From positions 768,001-832,000 of the forward strand of contig CAVVJT010000007.1 of NCBI GenBank assembly GCA_963748625.1: DNA of 64,000 nt. Direction: 5' to 3'. The notes under the pieces are model-generated. The model searched no databases, was not told where the DNA came from, and saw only the letters and a list, made by a program, of their open reading frames with translations. This document shows positions 54,751 to 63,177 of this stretch, piece after piece. Made by a program: the position numbers and the translations under genes. The stretch comes from an uncultured Chloroflexia bacterium. GTDB lineage: Bacteria > Chloroflexota > Limnocylindria > Limnocylindrales > CSP1-4. Within the stretch, counting starts at the first letter, position 1, and every line of letters begins with the position of its first letter.

Positions 54751-54778
54751 TCGCGCGCCATCGGGTGGTGGAGGGATC

Positions 54779-54800
54779 TGGTCGGGGCGAGGGGGATCGA
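54779..54800 (-). mobile_element. att-like relic of a tRNA-Pro 3' end (copy A)
   Basis: Minus strand reads tcgatccccctcgccccgaCCA. Confidence 0.65.
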
Positions 54801-54931
54801 CCCGACGGAACCTACCTCATCGACGCGCTGTGACCGTTCCTGGATCGTCGGCGGGTCCCCTCCAATGCACGGCGCGGGCTGCGGCGTCGGCGGAGAGGCC
54901 CGCGCGATGACCCTGGCCTCGATGCTGCGAG

Positions 54932-54988
54932 TCAGGCCTTCGGCTTCGTGGTCTTCGGCTTCTTCGGGGTCTTTGCCTTCTTGTCCAC
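54932..54988 (-). CDS. 18-aa Lys/Pro-rich small peptide MDKKAKTPKKPKTTKPKA
   Basis: GAGGAG RBS 8 nt before GTG; all Lys codons are AAG. Confidence 0.5.
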   Translation of the reverse strand: MDKKAKTPKKPKTTKPKA

Positions 54989-55122
54989 TCTGGCATCTCC
55001 TCTCAAACGCACCACGTTCGTCGCGGCATGAACGGCGATAGTCGCCGACCTGCATCTTGCGCCCACCCTGCCAATCCCGCCCAGCACCGGCGACCAATCG
55101 TCCGCTCGCCAGCCCGCGTGCG

Positions 55123-55470
55123 TCAACCTCGGCCGAGGACCACGTCGATGCCGGCCAGGACGAGCTCGAGGCTCGAGGCGGACAGGCGCCCGGTGCGCTC
55201 CGTCAAGGCGGCCCTGTCCAGGGTCACGATCTGGGACACGTTCGCGACCGACGGCTTCGTCAGGCCGGTAGCGCGGGCGGGCAGCAGCACGCTGCTCGGC
55301 GCGTCGGCCCACCGCGTGTTGCTGGTGAGGGCCACACAGACAACGGTCCGTAGGTTGCTCGCGTTGAAAGCGTCGCCCTGGACGACGACGACGGGGCGGC
55401 GGAAGCCAGGCTCGGAGCCCGCGGGGTCGGCGAGGTCCGCCAACCAGACCTCTCCCCGGGCGATTACCAC
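55123..55470 (-). CDS. mazF: PemK/MazF family toxin
   Basis: RGEVWLADL..P.GSEPGFRRPVVVVQ, SVANVSQI motifs. Confidence 0.92.
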   Translation of the reverse strand: MVIARGEVWLADLADPAGSEPGFRRPVVVVQGDAFNASNLRTVVCVALTSNTRWADAPSSVLLPARATGLTKPSVANVSQIVTLDRAALTERTGRLSASSLELVLAGIDVVLGRG

Positions 55471-55650
55471 TCCGTCGACTCGAGCGTGCGCCGCGCGGAC
55501 CGGGCGGCGAAGTCAGCCGCATCCGGCTGGCCCACGTCCGCGATGACCGCGTCGAGGCCCACCGTCACCTCGTCGGGCGCGTGACGCGCGAGGTACTCGC
55601 GGAGAGCGGCGCTGTAGACCTCGGACCGCGAGCGGCGAGAGCGCTTCCCG
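55464..55650 (-). pseudogene. 5'-truncated RHH antitoxin of the MazF pair
   Basis: SRSEVYSAALREYLARH...EW overlaps the toxin start; the N-terminal beta-strand and start are missing. Confidence 0.7.
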
Positions 55651-55690
55651 GCATGGTGGCTGCCGGTGCACGTCTGGTGCGACGCGGGAC

Positions 55691-56104
55691 TCAGCCCGCT
55701 GCCTCGAGCTCCGCGAGGAACGCAGCGGGCCGGCGCACGGGGATCCGGTCCGCGAGGTCGGTCATGTGGGTGTCGCCGGACACGATGACCGCGCGTGCCG
55801 CGGTGGCGAGCGCGACCAGGTAATCGTCGTTGGGATCGCCAGACCGTATGGGCGGCGGGCCGGGCGGATCGAGCACGAGCTCCGCCGTCCTGCCGAGCAG
55901 GGTGACGAGCGCGTCGACATCGGCCGGGGGCACCAGGCGGGCGAGCTTCGGATAGCCGAGGGCTCGCCGCAGCTCGGCGAGGAGCAACGGCGAGACGACG
56001 AGCTCGAAGGCACCGTTGCGCCACGCCACGAGCAGCCGCCCGGGGGCGCCATGGGGGGAGAGGACAGCCGAGATCAGGACGTTGACGTCAAGGACGGCGC
56101 GCAC
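55691..56104 (-). CDS. PIN-family toxin (PIN_3-like)
   Basis: AVLDVNVLISA, EL, DPNDDY, IVSGD motifs. Confidence 0.9.
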   Translation of the reverse strand: MRAVLDVNVLISAVLSPHGAPGRLLVAWRNGAFELVVSPLLLAELRRALGYPKLARLVPPADVDALVTLLGRTAELVLDPPGPPPIRSGDPNDDYLVALATAARAVIVSGDTHMTDLADRIPVRRPAAFLAELEAAG

Positions 56105-56115
56105 GACAGCGCAGA

Positions 56116-56337
56116 TCAGGTGCGGGTAGCGTGCTGCGCCTCGAGTGCGAGGGCCATCGCCTCGTCCTCGGACAGGTCGTTGGCTGCCCACAGGCGGTCC
56201 AGGAGATCCAGGCCGAGGTCCCGGCGGAGCGCCTCCTCGATCACGTCGCTGTCGCCCTTGCCGAGTCGTGCGGCACGGATCTTCACCGCACGCAGCACCT
56301 CGGGATCGATCGTAAGGGTCGTCCGCACCTTCGTCAT
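56116..56337 (-). CDS. RHH antitoxin
   Basis: KVRTTLTID.EVLRAVK..AAR.G..DSDVIEEALR; inverted repeat cgcatca...tgatgcg upstream (56341-56362). Confidence 0.85.
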   Translation of the reverse strand: MTKVRTTLTIDPEVLRAVKIRAARLGKGDSDVIEEALRRDLGLDLLDRLWAANDLSEDEAMALALEAQHATRT

Positions 56338-56468
56338 GAGCGCATCATCGCATCTTGATGCGTTGGTGAGCAAGAGCCCGACACACCTCGGCCCGAACCC
56401 CGACGGAACCGACCTCATCGGAATCGACCGGGTACCCCAGTGCGAGCGCCATCCCCAGGCTAGCCGAG

Positions 56469-56561
56469 CTACAGCGCGGTGAGGATCGCGAGCACTGACG
56501 GCACGATGAAGATGGCCACGAACGCGGCCGTCAGGAGGGGCTCGCCAACGCGGCGGATCAT
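56469..56561 (-). CDS. Possible 30-aa hydrophobic single-TM peptide
   Basis: MIRRVGEPLLTAAFVAIFIVPSVLAILTAL; no clear RBS. Confidence 0.35.
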   Translation of the reverse strand: MIRRVGEPLLTAAFVAIFIVPSVLAILTAL

Positions 56562-56564
56562 CCA

Positions 56565-56576
56565 CGGGGCGAGAGG
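56565..56576 (-). mobile_element. att-like core relic (copy B)
   Basis: cggggcgagagg, identical to the core of the 60549 copy and in the same orientation. Confidence 0.5.
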
Positions 56577-56664
56577 CTTTGCGCCGAGACCAAGTACCAA
56601 CACGTGATCACGGCGTGGAACACACCGTGCGGGCGCCCGTGGCCGGTCCGGCCACCCGGCCTTG

Positions 56665-58437
56665 TCACCAGGGCCCTGAATCGAGCAACCTCATGAAGTT
56701 GCGCTTGCGTGCGTGGGCCGCCCGAACGCCCGCAAGGTACACCGGAAACACGTCACCGGATCCGGTTCTGTCCATCAGGTCCCGGATGTGTCCCAGCAGC
56801 TCGACCGCCGCCGCGTAGCCGTCGTTGGTCATCGTCTGCAGGAGGGCCTCCACCTCGCCCTGGTGGATGGGGATCGCGTCCGCAGGGTGGTCGATCTCCC
56901 GCCGTCGTGCCAGTTCCCGCCAGGCGGGCTCCGAACACCCCAGCGTCACGGCCTCCCGCCACGCGCTGTCCACGTCGCCCTCGAGCAGGAGCATCCGCAC
57001 GAGGGCGGTGCCATCCGCGGGGAGGTCCCAACGGTTCGCGGGTGGCCGGGCGTCCCGCTGCGCCTCGACAATGGACGCGCGAGCGGCGTCGAGGGCACGC
57101 GTCCGCCAGGCCGGCCACGCACCGGCGCGGCTCGCGTGGGCCCTGAGCGCGGCGAAGCCCTCGACGGTCGGCCGGACCTCGAACGGCGCCCAGGCGAGGG
57201 CGATCGCGTCGTCGTGGCGCCCCCGCTCGTGGTACCGGTCGGCCAGGAACTCGCGCAGGCGAGCGTCCGGCGGGTCCGGGAAGGCGCGGGTCCCCTGCTC
57301 GGCCCAGTCCAGCGCCTCCTCGTCCCGGCCGGCGTCCATGCACACCCGGGCGATGTCGAGGTACGCGTACGGGCTCGAGAGGTCGCGGGCCTTGACCGCG
57401 AGCAGCTCGTCGACGTCGCCGGTCGCCCGGGCGAGCGACTCCATGATCGAGGTGATCCGGAAGCGCCGGCCCTCGAATGACTGGCCGCCGCCGGATGCCG
57501 GACCCAGCGCCGGCACCCCGGCCCACACAGCCTCGGCCCGGCGCCGGTACTCCGCGAGGCCCGCCTCGCCGAGGACACCGGCATACACCTGCGCGGCGCC
57601 TGCGAACACGTCCCACCGGCCGTCGAGCTCCCAGGCGAAGAGGCGGCCGGCAAGCACGATCGGGTCCGGGCGTGCCACCTCGCACGCGGCCAGGTGCAGG
57701 TCCCCCACGCGCCCGAGGATGCCGCCCATCCCGCCGTCCGAGTCGTCGACGTGGTCCAGCGCGGCTTCGACACGCCGGAGGGCGTGCTCGGCGAGGTCGA
57801 TCACGGCGTCGGCCTGCCCGGCGCGCAGCAGGTCGTCGAGAAGGTCGATGGCATCGTGGATCCCCGACACGTAGCCGTACACGTCCGCGTAGCGGAGGTG
57901 GCGCGGGAGGCGGACCGCCTGGTCGATCGCCCGGCCGACCAGCGCGGCACCGGCGCCATCCGCCTCGGCCGCCGCCACGAGCAGCAGGAGGCGCTCGCGG
58001 AGCAGGTCGTCCCGCTCGGCCTGCGCGAGGACCAGGTCAACGAGGGCGTCGCGGTCCATCGCCGCGAGGTGGCTCCGGATGTCCTCGGTCGTGATCCTCG
58101 GCGGCCGGGCCCTCGCGCGGGCACGTGATCGGGAACCCGGGCCCTGGAGGCCCCTCGCCTGGCCAAGCCACGCGAGGCCGAGGGCGACCAGGTGCTTGCA
58201 GAAGGCGCCGGTCTCGCCCATCGGGCAGTCGCAGGTCCCGGTCAGGCCGTCGCTCCCGGCCGCGAGGACCACCCCGTAGTCGCGTGTGCCCTCGACGATC
58301 CCGGTGATGGCGGCGCCCTCCTCGGCGAGATCGGCCACGCGGCCCTCGTCCGCGTACTCGCGCCCGCGGACGAACGTGCGATCGCCGGCATGAAGGCGCA
58401 GGGCCTTGGGCGTGACGAGCTCCCGGAGGCTGCTCAT
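56665..58437 (-). CDS. SWIM zinc-finger protein with helical/TPR-like C-terminus
   Basis: RG.EY...G.V N-terminus and CDCP...FCKH SWIM motif. Confidence 0.88.
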   Translation of the reverse strand: MSSLRELVTPKALRLHAGDRTFVRGREYADEGRVADLAEEGAAITGIVEGTRDYGVVLAAGSDGLTGTCDCPMGETGAFCKHLVALGLAWLGQARGLQGPGSRSRARARARPPRITTEDIRSHLAAMDRDALVDLVLAQAERDDLLRERLLLLVAAAEADGAGAALVGRAIDQAVRLPRHLRYADVYGYVSGIHDAIDLLDDLLRAGQADAVIDLAEHALRRVEAALDHVDDSDGGMGGILGRVGDLHLAACEVARPDPIVLAGRLFAWELDGRWDVFAGAAQVYAGVLGEAGLAEYRRRAEAVWAGVPALGPASGGGQSFEGRRFRITSIMESLARATGDVDELLAVKARDLSSPYAYLDIARVCMDAGRDEEALDWAEQGTRAFPDPPDARLREFLADRYHERGRHDDAIALAWAPFEVRPTVEGFAALRAHASRAGAWPAWRTRALDAARASIVEAQRDARPPANRWDLPADGTALVRMLLLEGDVDSAWREAVTLGCSEPAWRELARRREIDHPADAIPIHQGEVEALLQTMTNDGYAAAVELLGHIRDLMDRTGSGDVFPVYLAGVRAAHARKRNFMRLLDSGPW

Positions 58438-58486
58438 GACGGGGAGGCCATGAGCCCTTGGAGCCGGATGGCCGCCAGCGACCCGA

Positions 58487-59383
58487 TCACGGTTGCCAGA
58501 TCCGGGTGGACGGGTCCCAGCGCAGACCCATCATGCCCGCGAGCACGGGCTCGAGGAATGCGATGAGCGCCGCGTGTGCCTCTCGCGTCGTCGGAGGGTC
58601 GAGCGCCATCTCCTTCCGCAGTGCCACGTACGGGCGGGCCCATGCCTCGGGTGGCTCCGTGAGCGCCGGCGGCCAGGCATGCGAGGCCCGACGCGCGAAG
58701 GTGGCCGTCGCGGCGTCGATGAGCGCATCGCTCGAGAACGCGTGGCGTTGCGCGAACCAGACCATGTCGGCGAGGTCCTTCGCCCGGGTGTTCTCGGTGT
58801 CGCGCGGGAGGGTGTAGGCGTGCAGCTTCTCCGCAAACTGCTGGGCGACCGGGTAGACCGGGAACCAGGCACGCTCGAACCCGAGGCGCTCGACGAGCGG
58901 GTCGCTCGGGTGGCGCTCGAGCGCGCCGGCCACCGCGTCCCGGGAGCTGATGTCCAGCTTGAAGCGCACGAGCTCGGCGCCGGCGACCCGGGCGACGACG
59001 ACGAACCGGAGGCCGCCGCCGGGCGGCCCGGGCAGGAGGCGCGGCGGGCCCGCCAGCTCATACGTGAAGGGGTCGTCGATGACGTGGCCGACGGCGGCCG
59101 CGATCATCCCGGCTGCCGTGTCGATGCCGGCGTCGATCCGCAGGTCCACGTCCTCGGTGAAGCGGGCCTCGCCCGGGTGCCGCAGCTGGTTCGCGTACCC
59201 GCCCTTGAGGACCCACGTCCCCCACGGTGTCGTCGCGAGCAGGCGCACGAGGAACCGGTCGATCGCGACCGTGAGGTGGACCCGCCGCACCGGCTCATCG
59301 CCCGCAGCGTCTCGGGCGACGTTGCGCATCCGCGCGAGGAGCGCCTGCCTCATGCCGAGCTCGGTGAGGCGCGGATCGGTCAC
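58487..59383 (-). CDS. abiEii: AbiEii/AbiGii nucleotidyltransferase toxin (type IV TA)
   Basis: WVLKGG, RFTEDVD, AEKLHA, RAKDLAD motifs; GTGA-coupled to the antitoxin. Confidence 0.9.
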   Translation of the reverse strand: MTDPRLTELGMRQALLARMRNVARDAAGDEPVRRVHLTVAIDRFLVRLLATTPWGTWVLKGGYANQLRHPGEARFTEDVDLRIDAGIDTAAGMIAAAVGHVIDDPFTYELAGPPRLLPGPPGGGLRFVVVARVAGAELVRFKLDISSRDAVAGALERHPSDPLVERLGFERAWFPVYPVAQQFAEKLHAYTLPRDTENTRAKDLADMVWFAQRHAFSSDALIDAATATFARRASHAWPPALTEPPEAWARPYVALRKEMALDPPTTREAHAALIAFLEPVLAGMMGLRWDPSTRIWQP

Positions 59384-59925
59384 GGGCGCGCGGTCGTGAA
59401 CGGGTACAGGCGCCGCAGCCGCGCGATGTCGTCGGCCGTGAGCAGGGCGCGCTCGTGTCCCTCCGCGAACGCGGCCAGCAGCTGGTCCGGGTCGGTACCG
59501 CCCTTCGCGCAGTCGGCGAGCGTCCGGGCGAACGACGTCACCCATACGCCGTCGCGCAGCACGCGCTCGGCAGGGCCGATGGCCGAACGGTGGATCGTGT
59601 AGCCGGGGCGCGGCTTGAGGCCCGAGCCAGGCGGGACGGTGATGTGGACCGTGCGCGGCAGGACATCGCTGACGCCGTAGAGCTCGAGGGCCGTGTCGTG
59701 GCTGAACGTGGCGGACGGCGCCTGGACCGAGAACGCGTAGAAGCCGTCGAGGTGGCTCGCGGGTGTCCCGGCTAGGCGGTAGACGCCGTGGGCGACCCGC
59801 TCGACGAGCCCGCGCCGGGCGCGGTCCACGAGGGCCCGCCGGCTGATCCCGGCGGCGGCGGCCTGCGCGGTGCTGAAGTAGCCGTGCTGGGCGGCGGCAA
59901 GGTGGAGTAGATCACTCTCTGCCAT
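59380..59925 (-). CDS. abiEi: AbiEi antitoxin (type IV TA)
   Basis: A..QHGYFSTAQA, RV.HGVYRL, SHDTAL, VTS.ARTLAD motifs. Confidence 0.9.
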   Translation of the reverse strand: MAESDLLHLAAAQHGYFSTAQAAAAGISRRALVDRARRGLVERVAHGVYRLAGTPASHLDGFYAFSVQAPSATFSHDTALELYGVSDVLPRTVHITVPPGSGLKPRPGYTIHRSAIGPAERVLRDGVWVTSFARTLADCAKGGTDPDQLLAAFAEGHERALLTADDIARLRRLYPFTTARP

Positions 59926-59931
59926 CACCGA

Positions 59932-59960
59932 ATGTTACGCACCACGTAACAATTGGTCAA
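59932..59960 (-). promoter_or_regulatory. abiE promoter with overlapping inverted-repeat operator
   Basis: TTGACC-17 nt-TAACAT-6 nt-ATG; palindrome tgttacg-cacca-cgtaaca at 59933-59951. Confidence 0.75.
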
Positions 59961-60015
59961 GCTCTTCGCATTGACTACTTCACCCGTCATCCCTGACCGG
60001 CTCGACGTGACCGTT

Positions 60016-60473
<458 letters not shown>

Positions 60474-60504
60474 GGCATGGCCGATGATCCCGCCCACTGC
60501 CCGG

Positions 60505-60537
60505 CAACAAAGAGCCGGACCGCGGTGGTCCGGCTCT
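60505..60537 (-). terminator. Intrinsic terminator just downstream of the tRNA 3'-end relic
   Basis: agagccggacc-5 nt-ggtccggctct hairpin followed by ttgttg on the minus strand. Confidence 0.75.
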
Positions 60538-60548
60538 GGTGTGGAGAC

Positions 60549-60567
60549 TGGTCGGGGCGAGAGGGAT
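60549..60567 (-). mobile_element. att-like relic of a tRNA-Pro 3' end (copy C); left boundary of an island extending rightwards
   Basis: Minus strand reads atccctctcgccccgaCCA, followed by a terminator. Confidence 0.72.
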
Positions 60568-60663
60568 AGCCCCTCCCTAACTCAGCGATCGCTCAGCTTC
60601 CTGATGGTCAACGCCACGCCGCGGCAGCCGCCGGTGCCCCTCGAGCTGGTCCGCAGCGCATGA
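60550..60663 (+). pseudogene. Orphan C-terminal tail GRGERDSPSLTQRSLSFLMVNATPRQPPVPLELVRSA* (putative split recombinase tail)
   Basis: Open frame runs through the att relic and ends in an ATGA overlap with the next gene. Confidence 0.5.
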
Positions 60664-60905
60664 CGCGACGGTCGTCCCGCTCCGCCGAGCGCGCCACCGA
60701 CCGCGAGGTCGGGGTGGTCGCGGCCGTCCTGGTCGCCGGGTCGGAGAAGGCCGCCGCCCACCGCCTCGGCCTGTCGCCCTCGACGGTGAAGCACCACCTG
60801 GCGAATGCGCGGTCCAAGGTGGGGGCGACGACGACGGCGCAGCTGGTGTGGATCCTCGCTCCTCGGTTGCCCGAGCCGGAGGGCATGGCCCAAACGGACG
60901 AATGA
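60660..60905 (+). CDS. Small stand-alone LuxR-type HTH protein
   Basis: TDRE..VV......SEKAAAHRLGLSPSTVKHHLANARSKVGATTTAQLV LuxR HTH pattern. Confidence 0.85.
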   Translation: MTRRSSRSAERATDREVGVVAAVLVAGSEKAAAHRLGLSPSTVKHHLANARSKVGATTTAQLVWILAPRLPEPEGMAQTDE

Positions 60906-61237
60906 CGGCAGCTCGAGGCGCGGTCGCGCTATCGGGACCGCGCGAACCAGTCGTAGATCGACGCGGGGCCGTTGTAGACGCCGCCAGCCCGAGTCCGCTG
61001 ACGGGTGACTTCTCGAGACCGGCGGCAAGAGTCGCTCAACTGTTGGTGACCCGTGTACAGGGTCCGTTGACGCTCAGACTCGCAAGAGTACAATGACCTG
61101 TATTCAACGGTCCATTTGGACCGTTCGCTGTCTCGAGCCCCGAGCGAGGTGCGAGGGCGATGCGTCGACTCCTGATTTCGCCCGTCGTCATGGCCTAGGC
61201 CCCCGCGAGAGGACCGCGAGAGAAAGGGTCAGTGCTC

Positions 61238-62017
61238 ATGGAGAAGGCAATCCGGTTCAGGATTTTGGGATCCCTCGCCGTTGCGGCGGCGCTGGCGCTC
61301 CCAACTGGACCGGCGATGGCTGCCGAGTCCAGCACGGCGCAGGCGTACACGTGCACCGGTGGCGACATCCCGTCAGGCAACTACCGCAGCATCACGGTCA
61401 CGGGCCCCTGCTCCGTACCGGCCGATGCCGTGATCAGCGTAGTCGGGAACGTGAACGTCAGGGCCGGTGCCCAACTAGACGCGCAAAGCGCGCCCTCGGC
61501 GATCACCGTCGGACGCAACGTCACCGCGGCTGCGGGCTCGCTGCTCGGCCTGGGCTGCCAGCCGCCCTCGCTCACCGGAAACTCGGCACATGAGTGTGCC
61601 GTCGATCCGGAAGGACACTCCACCATCATCGTCAACGGAAACGTCACGGCAACCGACGCCGCTGCCGTTCTGTTGAACGGGATTACGGTCGAGGGGAACG
61701 TCACCCTGATCGGGGGAGGCTCGGCGATCCCCTGGTCGATCAAGAACAACACGATCGACCGCAACCTCACGGTGGGGGGGCAGACGACCGATTGGCTCGG
61801 CGTGCTCTTCAACACGATCGGTGGGAACGCGACGTTGATCGGCGTGAAGGTGACCGACGTTCACCCGGGCGCACCCGGCGTCTACATCGTTCGCAACACG
61901 ATCGGGCGGAACCTCATCTGCTTGGGATTGACCCCGGGAGTATCCGGAGGTTTCGTCCCCGGCAGCGTCAACGTCGTCGGCCGTCACGCGATCGGTCAGT
62001 GCGCATCCCTGGTCTGA
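61238..62017 (+). CDS. Secreted hypothetical protein, beta-helix-like (GNV repeats)
   Basis: Signal peptide, repeated I/V.GNV and NTIG.N units, Cys pairs. Confidence 0.75.
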   Translation: MEKAIRFRILGSLAVAAALALPTGPAMAAESSTAQAYTCTGGDIPSGNYRSITVTGPCSVPADAVISVVGNVNVRAGAQLDAQSAPSAITVGRNVTAAAGSLLGLGCQPPSLTGNSAHECAVDPEGHSTIIVNGNVTATDAAAVLLNGITVEGNVTLIGGGSAIPWSIKNNTIDRNLTVGGQTTDWLGVLFNTIGGNATLIGVKVTDVHPGAPGVYIVRNTIGRNLICLGLTPGVSGGFVPGSVNVVGRHAIGQCASLV

Positions 62018-62106
62018 CCTCGTTGGTCTGACCTCGTTCGGGCCATGTCCGTCCGCCATCCTCTGGGCCCCCAGCGTGTGGCGGACGGCGCCCGGCCCCC
62101 AACCGG

Positions 62107-62234
62107 CCTCGACCGTGAAGCACCACCTGGCGAACGCGCGGTCCAAGGTGGGCGCGGAGACGACGGCGCAGCCGGTGTGGATCCTGGCGCCGCGGCTGCC
62201 CGAGCCCGAGGGTGTGGCCGAAGCGGACGAGTAG
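62107..62234 (+). repeat. 3' fragment copy 2 of the small HTH gene
   Basis: Aligns without gaps to 60778-60905 and ends at its own stop codon (TAG). Confidence 0.92.
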
Positions 62235-63002: not shown

Positions 63003-63006
63003 GGGA

Positions 63007-63177
63007 CGCCGGGTCGGAGAAGGCCGCGGCCCACCGCCTGGGCTTGTCGCACTCGACCGTGAAGCACCACCTGCGAATGCGCGGTCCAAGGTGGGCGCAG
63101 CCACGACGGCGCAACTGGTGTGGATCCTCGCCCCGCGCCTGCCCGAGCCCGAGGGCGTGGTCCAGACGGACGACTAA
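63007..63177 (+). repeat. 3' fragment copy 3 of the small HTH gene
   Basis: Aligns to 60734-60905 with a 1-nt deletion and ends at its own stop codon (TAA). Confidence 0.92.

Follow-up and report, generated by a model that had tools for sequence, protein, structure and literature searches.

The window analysed here is a 64-kb stretch of DNA, positions 768001-832000 of contig C7 in the genome assembly G000 of an uncultured Chloroflexia bacterium (4.63 Mb, 71% G+C, 10 contigs). The segment under study, positions 60503-60905 of the window, contains a hairpin, a relic of the 3' end of a proline tRNA gene (relic 1), a 37-codon frame that begins in the relic, and a small helix-turn-helix (HTH) gene whose start overlaps the stop of this frame. 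The relic core at 60549-60564 very probably represents the distal junction of elements of temperate-phage type that inserted at the 3' end of tRNA-Pro(CGG) by means of a serine integrase with its phage attachment site (attP) in its own last codons. The features of the segment and of its left flank are, in window positions:

60019-60473, no strand: stretch of 455 bp, A/T throughout but for three bases, with a run of ~70 A at its start
60503-60537, minus strand: hairpin and flank past the relic CCA (stem 60511-60521 / 60527-60537, 5-nt loop), then CTTTGTTG
60549-60564, minus strand: 16-nt core, TGGTCGGGGCGAGAGG in the plus-strand reading, antisense of nt 61-76 of tRNA-Pro(CGG)
60550-60663, plus strand: predicted orphan C-terminal tail of a serine integrase, type B, 37 codons GRGERDSPSLTQRSLSFLMVNATPRQPPVPLELVRSA and stop
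60565-60590, plus strand: predicted P' half-site, the first ~26 nt of the tail, mirroring the core and the 3' end of integrase genes that end in ...IGEF
60660-60905, plus strand: LuxR/GerE-type HTH gene of 81 aa (Pfam GerE), start overlapping the tail stop (ATGA)

On the minus strand relic 1 reads ...ATCCCTCTCGCCCCGACCA, followed by a perfect 11-bp hairpin. The core comprises the 3' strand of the T stem, the 3' strand of the acceptor, A73 and the CCA of tRNA-Pro(CGG). On the plus strand the frame from 60550 reads GRGER and 32 further codons, and its TGA (60661-60663) overlaps the ATG of the HTH gene at 60660, as the initial annotation of this DNA had described. That annotation had also claimed a displaced tRNA-Pro 3' end and expected the intact minus-strand gene on the continuation of the contig. 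According to ARAGORN the minus strand of C7 has an intact tRNA-Pro(CGG) gene at 836701-836777 (68701-68777 in window numbering), 8.2 kb to the right of relic 1 and 4.7 kb past the window end, and the match to the relic is exact over 16 nt. No RNA genes were found inside the 64-kb window by ARAGORN or Rfam. In the whole 4.63 Mb the 17-mer CTGGTCGGGGCGAGAGG has just three exact copies, which share an 8.2-kb part of C7. One is the 3' end of the intact tRNA, another is relic 1, and the third (relic 2) lies 822 bp from the tRNA. One more copy, with a single mismatch, is located 5.8 kb to the left of relic 1; a reversed control pattern gave 0 matches. The Islander signature is present, in that an intact tDNA is accompanied by a displaced 3' fragment in direct orientation. 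The core at 60549-60564 is taken to be the displaced tRNA 3' end and at the same time the crossover-bearing core of a distal attachment junction.

A query of 435 nt, running from the hairpin to the HTH gene, matched 23 of 24 genomes of the genus in up to 14 places per genome, and many of these matches start exactly at the core. When the GRGER frame was followed upstream from the cores in the relatives' loci, long open reading frames (ORFs) emerged, which encode serine recombinases of about 500 aa. A recombinase match was obtained in 41 of 70 genomes of the genus. Thirteen intact tRNA-Pro junctions of relatives were compared, a sample that is biased because the loci were chosen by recombinase match. 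Eight of these have 291-627 open codons upstream and three have 102-142; all 11 open junctions show a recombinase C-terminus that ends in GRGERI and a stop, and the remaining two are without a recombinase. The stop is a TGA in the antisense of the tRNA T loop. A recombinase that reads into the antisense of tRNA-Pro, as had been proposed, is therefore found in relatives. At relic cores the integrase ORFs of the relatives read on through GRGER into a tail.

At least five C-terminal subfamilies cross the core in one frame, with the residues before the core being ...KEG(R/Q)S, ...SASAGY, ...IGEF, ...RSRY and ...TLRCF. Among the best 120 database homologues, 39 end in GRGERI and a stop, 55 continue from GRGER into a tail, and 26 are without GRGER near the C-terminus. 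The tail is 27-45 aa long in the attP-like integrase forms. The family comprises 657 protein clusters at E<=1e-10 among 8000 candidates scored.

Domain tests of the integrase were run on the relatives, the window itself holding no Resolvase domain. Pfam Resolvase (PF00239) was found in five of six full-length relatives at 3e-12 to 6e-11, with the sixth below the cut-off, and PHROG 95 'integrase' matched at 6.7e-34 over residues 13-455. In the motif RxSxxxQ, R23, S25 and Q29 are invariant in 68 sequences. C280 is invariant as well, C283, H296 and C300 are nearly so, and the cysteine pairs are consistent with a zinc ribbon. Profile matches in the PDB were to 3g13 (1.6e-8) and, weakly, to residues 172-337 of SPbeta YokA (0.007). 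The core-crossing integrase proteins gave no match to PF00589. The enzymes that own the tails are predicted to be large serine integrases.

Two types of tail were compared, tail A (DSPATNDLPITMRLAEPPEP..) and tail B, the type of the window. Tail A was found in 81 metagenome copies, of which 70 have exactly 32 codons; the ATGA overlap is present in 60, and the HTH gene comes next in 47. For 63 unique sequences, which are 32-codon copies only, related to each other and not independent, the ratio of non-synonymous to synonymous divergence (pN/pS) is 0.41 for the GRGER frame, as against 1.31 and 1.41 for the two remaining sense frames and 0.76-1.22 for the antisense ones; the entropy summed over third positions is 15.4 vs 8.8 and 8.3 at the other positions. 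A smaller set of 11 tail-A copies gave a pN/pS of 0.35 vs ~1.5. Tail B is known from 35 copies including that of the window, the other 34 being from metagenome-assembled genomes of Chloroflexota / Ca. Limnocylindrales. The ATGA is present in 22 of them, and in about 16 (by eye) the next gene is one of two LuxR-type HTH genes. The pattern (D/A)S(P/A)SLTQ.SL.F(L/V)M(I/V)N.TPR...SA before the stop is kept in tail B despite many synonymous changes.

The beginning of the tail would also serve as DNA. The first ~26 nt form a mirrored half-site, and since the first ~9 codons double as this P' half-site, synonymous divergence is low there (pS 0.11). It might be argued from this that the whole segment past the core is conserved only as DNA, namely as the P' arm together with a promoter, a ribosome-binding site or a leader of the HTH gene, and that the GRGER frame is a by-product of high G+C content and was never a functional tail. 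An open frame of 37 codons is expected about half the time at 70% G+C by our own arithmetic, and pN/pS barely separates two of the frames in tail B. Such an explanation is improbable, given that codons 17-32 of tail A, which lie past the half-site, still have a pN/pS of 0.39 and that the length of exactly 32 codons is kept in 70 of the 81 copies. The stop also overlaps the next start as ATGA or GTGA in 78 of 87 tails of the A set and 31 of 38 of the B set (6 of 10 in the viral set), and tail families of unrelated DNA share, by eye, a similar hydrophobic pattern (ITMRLA, FLMVNA, QIRGCRVTM, IIVRVPIA). As far as sequence comparison can tell, the tail evolves like coding sequence.

The ORF listed at 60484-60663 consists of the tail and 22 upstream codons that run across the hairpin. 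Having its own ATG at 60484, no interruption, and an end in the ATGA overlap, this 59-aa ORF could be a stand-alone small gene or a leader peptide coupled to the HTH gene. That is very unlikely, as the first 22 codons lie on the hairpin flank, which varies among the copies compared, the ORF has no Pfam match, and the interval from the A/T stretch to the ORF has no promoter-like site (hits within the stretch being meaningless).

The symmetry of the reconstructed site was measured by comparing the 12 nt to the left of the core with the mirror positions in the tail, with nt 15 and 16 of the core on either side of the centre. Shuffling gave a null of 3.27 of 12 pairs (standard deviation 1.46). The values for three types of integrase end, out of 12 outer pairs, are:

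IGEF integrase end: tail A 5.33, tail B 9.96
KEG(R/Q)S integrase end: tail A 8.69, tail B 5.15
SASAGY integrase end: tail A 4.19, tail B 5.32

The window's own tail paired with four IGEF arms at 9, 11, 11 and 11 of the 12 outer pairs, and its inner positions pair with the core at 8 of 14. The reconstructed attP is an imperfect dyad of ~54 bp. This dyad has the size and shape expected for a serine-integrase site, and the crossover would lie at the GG of core nt 15-16. A scan for dyads at any centre that counted core pairs was dropped; relics without a recombinase peaked at the same centre.

A whole element was found in the relative G061, as a unit of 39.6 kb next to tRNA-Pro with genes for a terminase (TerL), an SPP1-type portal, a Gp37-like tail protein, collar proteins and a Prim-Pol; a tape-measure match was below the cut-off. 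The tRNA-proximal end carries a 498-aa IGEF integrase that ends in GRGERI and a stop. The distal end consists of the core, tail B, ATGA and a LuxR-type HTH gene, abutted by the integrase of the next element. As both ends read GRGER in one frame, excision would yield a protein of 492+35 aa coupled to the HTH gene. The attP rebuilt in silico fuses the recombinase frame to the tail in this relative, which is what the initial annotation had anticipated. In four relatives with long tRNA-adjacent integrases, far ends were found within 13-39 kb only for G061.

Of 20 related loci in IMG/VR, 14 contain the exact core, which in 13 continues an open frame of at least 482 upstream codons; tails of 29-42 codons are present in 11. 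Several of the loci are internal to contigs of 32-45 kb. No tRNA-Pro was called by ARAGORN in the 20 loci, the sole call being a tRNA-Met ~330 nt past the tail stop in L249. The elements are, at least in part, temperate phages.

A cycle can be proposed in which the integrase of the free, circular element would read through GRGER into a tail of 27-45 aa, whose stop overlaps the next gene, here the small LuxR-type HTH gene. Integration would take place by strand exchange inside the 16-nt core. The body of the integrase would then be located beside the rebuilt tRNA and end in GRGERI, with the stop contributed by the T-loop antisense, and the tail and its coupled HTH gene would be moved to the far end of the element. 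With attP inside the coding end, two forms of the protein would result, one from the free and one from the integrated element. The HTH gene would be read together with the integrase in the circular form and be cut off from it in the integrated form. In G000 the integrase bodies would have been deleted afterwards, and through this deletion the 37-codon frame would have become an orphan tail. As such, the orphan tail is unlikely to be expressed, and without a cognate integrase supplied in trans the array would be immobile. The segment 60503-60905 is, on this evidence, predicted to consist of a host-side hairpin, the core, a P' arm with a type-B tail cognate to IGEF integrases, and the HTH gene, and to form the distal junction of a decayed array that lacks an integrase. 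The repeats, the frames, the homology, the coding-like pattern of substitutions and the dyad symmetry are observed, and from them we infer the point of crossover, excision, and any function of the tail or of the HTH protein.

A number of observations weigh against this explanation. Pfam detected no recombinase families in the 20 ORFs scanned from relic 0 (54778) to the tRNA flank, and the GRGER frame, which is open for 47 codons upstream of the tRNA, has no similarity to a recombinase there. As the integrase body is absent at the tRNA side in G000, the link of this tail to a recombinase rests on homology with other genomes and on the symmetry of the att site. Many of the chromosomal junctions of recombinase, core and tail may be junctions of two tandem elements and not true attP sites. 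No excision joint was seen in the reads and contigs sampled, where each run contained at most 0.30 of the sampled words. The relatedness of the tail-A copies noted above belongs here as well, and so does the weak contrast in tail B, whose pN/pS of 0.65 vs 0.75 and 1.64 does not distinguish the frame by itself. Since the first ~9 tail codons are a DNA half-site too, part of the conservation is not at the protein level. Among the domain tests, Pfam Recombinase (PF07508) was weak: a single protein matched at 2.4e-6, another at 7e-4 and short of the cut-off (20.2 vs 21.1 bits), and it was unreported in five other full-length proteins.

The search for the joint between the tRNA core and relic 1 covered three contig sets and one raw-read run, which gave short contigs of related strains, 0 raw reads and no such joint, and hence no verdict on excision. 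Joints seen in the related-strain contigs link HTH paralogues, 5003 to 2693 and 6820 to 4108 (coordinates of locus L001, in which 10861 is C7 836861). No integrase gene, which an island of the Islander type would be expected to carry, lies between window position 54778 and the tRNA. The recombinase which the initial annotation had expected at the other boundary of this locus is missing, and such an absence is one of the outcomes which that annotation had named as refuting its reading. The claim that the frame is a recombinase C-terminal tail is upheld by its homology to the tails of integrases that span their own core, and fails as regards a recombinase body at the other boundary in G000. At relic 2 about 15 integrase C-terminal codons remain upstream (..WDAAFGAGDQPISIGQP followed by GRGERA and a stop), the only remnant of this kind.

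It is hardly conceivable that the repeats are scars of classical tyrosine-integrase islands, Islander-type or Mx8-like: PMC4383910 describes a tDNA and a displaced copy of its 3' part, both in direct orientation, as the classical mark of such islands, and relics 0 and 2 have ~45 nt of tRNA-like sequence resembling tyrosine-type cores, but no Phage_integrase domain is present in the 20 ORFs scanned across the array and the tRNA flank, the four tyrosine recombinases of the genome (PF00589) lie elsewhere, the nearest 35 kb off beside tRNA-Pro(TGG), none is near the arrays in five relatives, and the core-crossing ORFs are serine recombinases.

The serine-integrase explanation finds its nearest parallels in other families of enzymes. 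Integrase genes that extend across attP are known for tyrosine recombinases of the Mx8 and SSV types according to portions of PMC4383910 and PMC7253208, and the former, citing Tojo 1996, places attP of Mx8 inside intP. With Mx8 IntP/IntX the present system would share an att core in the 3' end of the integrase gene, a tRNA target, and the replacement of C-terminal residues upon integration. It differs in that the enzyme is a serine recombinase, the site is a dyad of ~54 bp and not a long arm-type attP, and the tail is coupled to a downstream HTH gene. Given that the core-crossing proteins lack a match to PF00589, the resemblance to Mx8 is in how the system works, not in family. The activity of IntP reportedly differs from that of IntX. 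The 'suicidal' integrases of the SSV1 type likewise have the recombination site inside the integrase ORF and a tRNA target, as stated in portions of PMC7253208 and PMC4383910. Unlike here, the SSV gene is split into two large parts and inactivated; in the present family the last 27-45 residues would be swapped and ~490 codons kept, and the catalytic family differs. The analogy with Mx8 and SSV1 made at the outset is sound for the att core inside the integrase gene and wrong for the type of recombinase, which is serine, not tyrosine.

Large serine integrases (phiC31, Bxb1, A118/LI, and SprA of SPbeta, which is YokA) agree with the family in the resolvase N-domain, the length of ~500 aa, the cysteine pairs, the short dyad att site, the prophage context and PHROG 95. 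The family is set apart from them by a tRNA 3' end as target, a 16-bp core that would rebuild the tRNA, and an attP which overlaps the coding end of the integrase. In phiC31, Bxb1 and A118 attP is located outside the int gene. Cis-mobilisable relics at tRNA genes are covered by the CIME concept. The array in G000 is similar to CIME-like tandem arrays in that direct repeats of a tRNA 3' end bound segments without a recombinase of their own; it is unlike them in having no cognate integrase in the genome, and mobilisation in trans is hypothetical here. Tandem islands are listed by Islander in the section of PMC4383910 concerned. Phages with serine integrases often integrate within ORFs, and their common cores are usually 8-12 bp, as given in part of PMC9303363. 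The literature searched, to which subscription journals and supplements did not belong, gave no report of a serine integrase that targets a tRNA or has attP within its own gene.

The swap of the C-terminus could act as a switch of direction or state, in which the tail-bearing, HTH-coupled circular form integrates, the form ending in GRGERI is inactive or biased to excision, and the HTH protein is the partner or regulator of the enzyme; this idea is a tentative one and rather doubtful. Should the tail matter for activity, the system would be a simple sensor of state of natural origin. The insertion of large DNA relies mainly on serine integrases as tools, and the control of their directionality is a central question. 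If the switch is true, Mx8 IntP/IntX would have its first counterpart among serine integrases, in a large natural group of enzymes directed at the 3' ends of tRNA genes. Three traits of the family are not described for serine integrases in the literature searched (a tRNA 3' target with a 16-bp core, an in-gene attP, two predicted protein forms). For annotation, the proposed origin of the tail would account for a recurrent 'orphan' small ORF and for the many small LuxR genes in genomes of Limnocylindrales. Core plus tail would also be a precise boundary marker for prophages and islands which are missed by integrase-based finders.

The 81-aa HTH protein matches Pfam GerE over residues 13-63 (4.9e-7, 29.7 bits vs a cut-off of 23.5), and its PHROG category is transcription regulation. 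Its family has 3011 clusters at E<=1e-3, the best 120 being 85-100% identical. A sequence scan found no promoter-like site between the core and the HTH start. The protein may be a regulator or a directionality factor of the integrase, as the initial annotation had suggested. A second small LuxR type (MRDGYLRG...) is encoded at L001 7733-7999 in segment B, and follows tail B in other genomes.

The hairpin next to relic 1 is stable in a 95-nt fold (-43.5 kcal/mol, z = -3.0), and 4 of 200 shuffles were equally stable. Similar hairpins abut relic cores whose right sides differ in five other loci (L071, L072, L075, L076, L136), which fits a host arm. No hairpin of this type was seen beside an intact tRNA in the loci compared. 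In G081, a genome without a recombinase match, the tRNA 3' flank resembles the tRNA-proximal flank of G000 (84% over 206 nt) and is unlike the flank of relic 1. The hairpin flank of relic 1 is most likely the host-side (B) arm with a terminator-like element; that the hairpin was the original terminator of the tRNA is plausible. The initial annotation had read a hairpin and a T-rich run as this terminator. The 11-bp hairpin is real, and the T run of CTTTGTTG is too weak, with 0 terminator calls in 59900-61300 by a simple consensus scan.

The A/T stretch at 60019-60473 sits 30 nt past the hairpin, and the only A/T-only runs of at least 20 nt in the whole G000 assembly fall within it. The homologous spacer between AbiEi and the hairpin in metagenome contig L136 is G+C-rich and is without an A/T stretch. 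The stretch is probably an artefact of assembly, standing in the place of roughly 100 nt, and no part of the element.

The array runs from the tRNA through 822 bp with MNT/HepT to relic 2, then through 7.3 kb of cargo and HTH fragments to relic 1, with relic 0 further to the left. The cargo comprises an F420-dependent reductase, TetR, SnoaL, NMO, an SRPBCC protein and a secreted protein of 261 aa, and the array also carries four to five small LuxR gene copies or fragments. A block of defence and toxin-antitoxin genes occupies window positions 54778-60019 to the left of relic 1; synteny of the hydrolase left of relic 0 was found only in G067. Further features of the window are:

54778-54794, minus strand: relic 0, tRNA 3' end with 1 mismatch, then ~28 nt of degenerate tRNA-like sequence
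55123-55470: MazF/PemK
55691-56565: PIN and ribbon-helix-helix (RHH)
56665-58437: SWIM/DUF6880 protein
58487-59928: AbiEii/AbiEi
62076-62234, plus strand: 5'-truncated HTH paralogue, 87% identical to 60775-60901
63004-63173, plus strand: second HTH paralogue, truncated and frameshifted

The unit of recombinase, core, tail and 5' part of the HTH gene looks as if it had been deleted repeatedly from former tandem elements. The HTH fragments at 62076-62234, 63004-63173 and L001 6682-6706 are each preceded by the 3' end of a cargo gene, namely those for the secreted 261-aa protein, SRPBCC and NMO. The order of AbiEi, hairpin and core recurs in L136. At relic 2 (L001 9878-9903) and relic 0 (window 54778-54822) the ~28 nt past the core resemble a T arm and anticodon stem (..GAACCTACCTCATCG). 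In G081 and G067 the opposite side of the core is abutted by GATGAGGTAGGTT, which is this motif in reverse complement. Three tandem repeats of 22 nt were observed just 5' of the tRNA-Pro gene, at L001 10861-10936 (C7 836861-836936).

The only member of the integrase family in G000 is a protein of 515 aa at C8 27368-28915, which extends for 20 codons into the antisense of tRNA-Arg(CCG). Relics of this tRNA end occur twice on C7, at 1271787 and 1274074, with the conserved tail ARPTGFEPADATIIVRVPIAPRPW and a stop. No phage genes were identified in the 10 ORFs scanned upstream of the C8 integrase, which include two-component systems, Lgt and DoxX. Small serine resolvases were discarded as candidates; the PF00239 matches of the genome are at C3 289-290 kb and on C8, and only the latter belongs to the family.

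Some minor observations were made elsewhere. In L152 and in L033/L223 the left side of the core abuts a broken IS481-like transposase ORF (..SDFTHWHLADG..VVATQDI before GRGER), and this break point is joined to tail A in one contig, to tail B in a second. C7 871129-872079 (L011 1129-2079) encodes an Xer-like tyrosine recombinase of 316 aa, on the 5' side of tRNA-Pro(TGG) and 35 kb from the array. ARAGORN called a 93-nt 'tRNA-Pro(ggg)' at C7 1186935-1187027 in a repeat of GGCTGGCTGGGGTGCGGCGTC type, most likely a false positive. Several 200-nt windows at C7 1200-7060 have less than 45% G+C and make up the sole other low-G+C region of the assembly.

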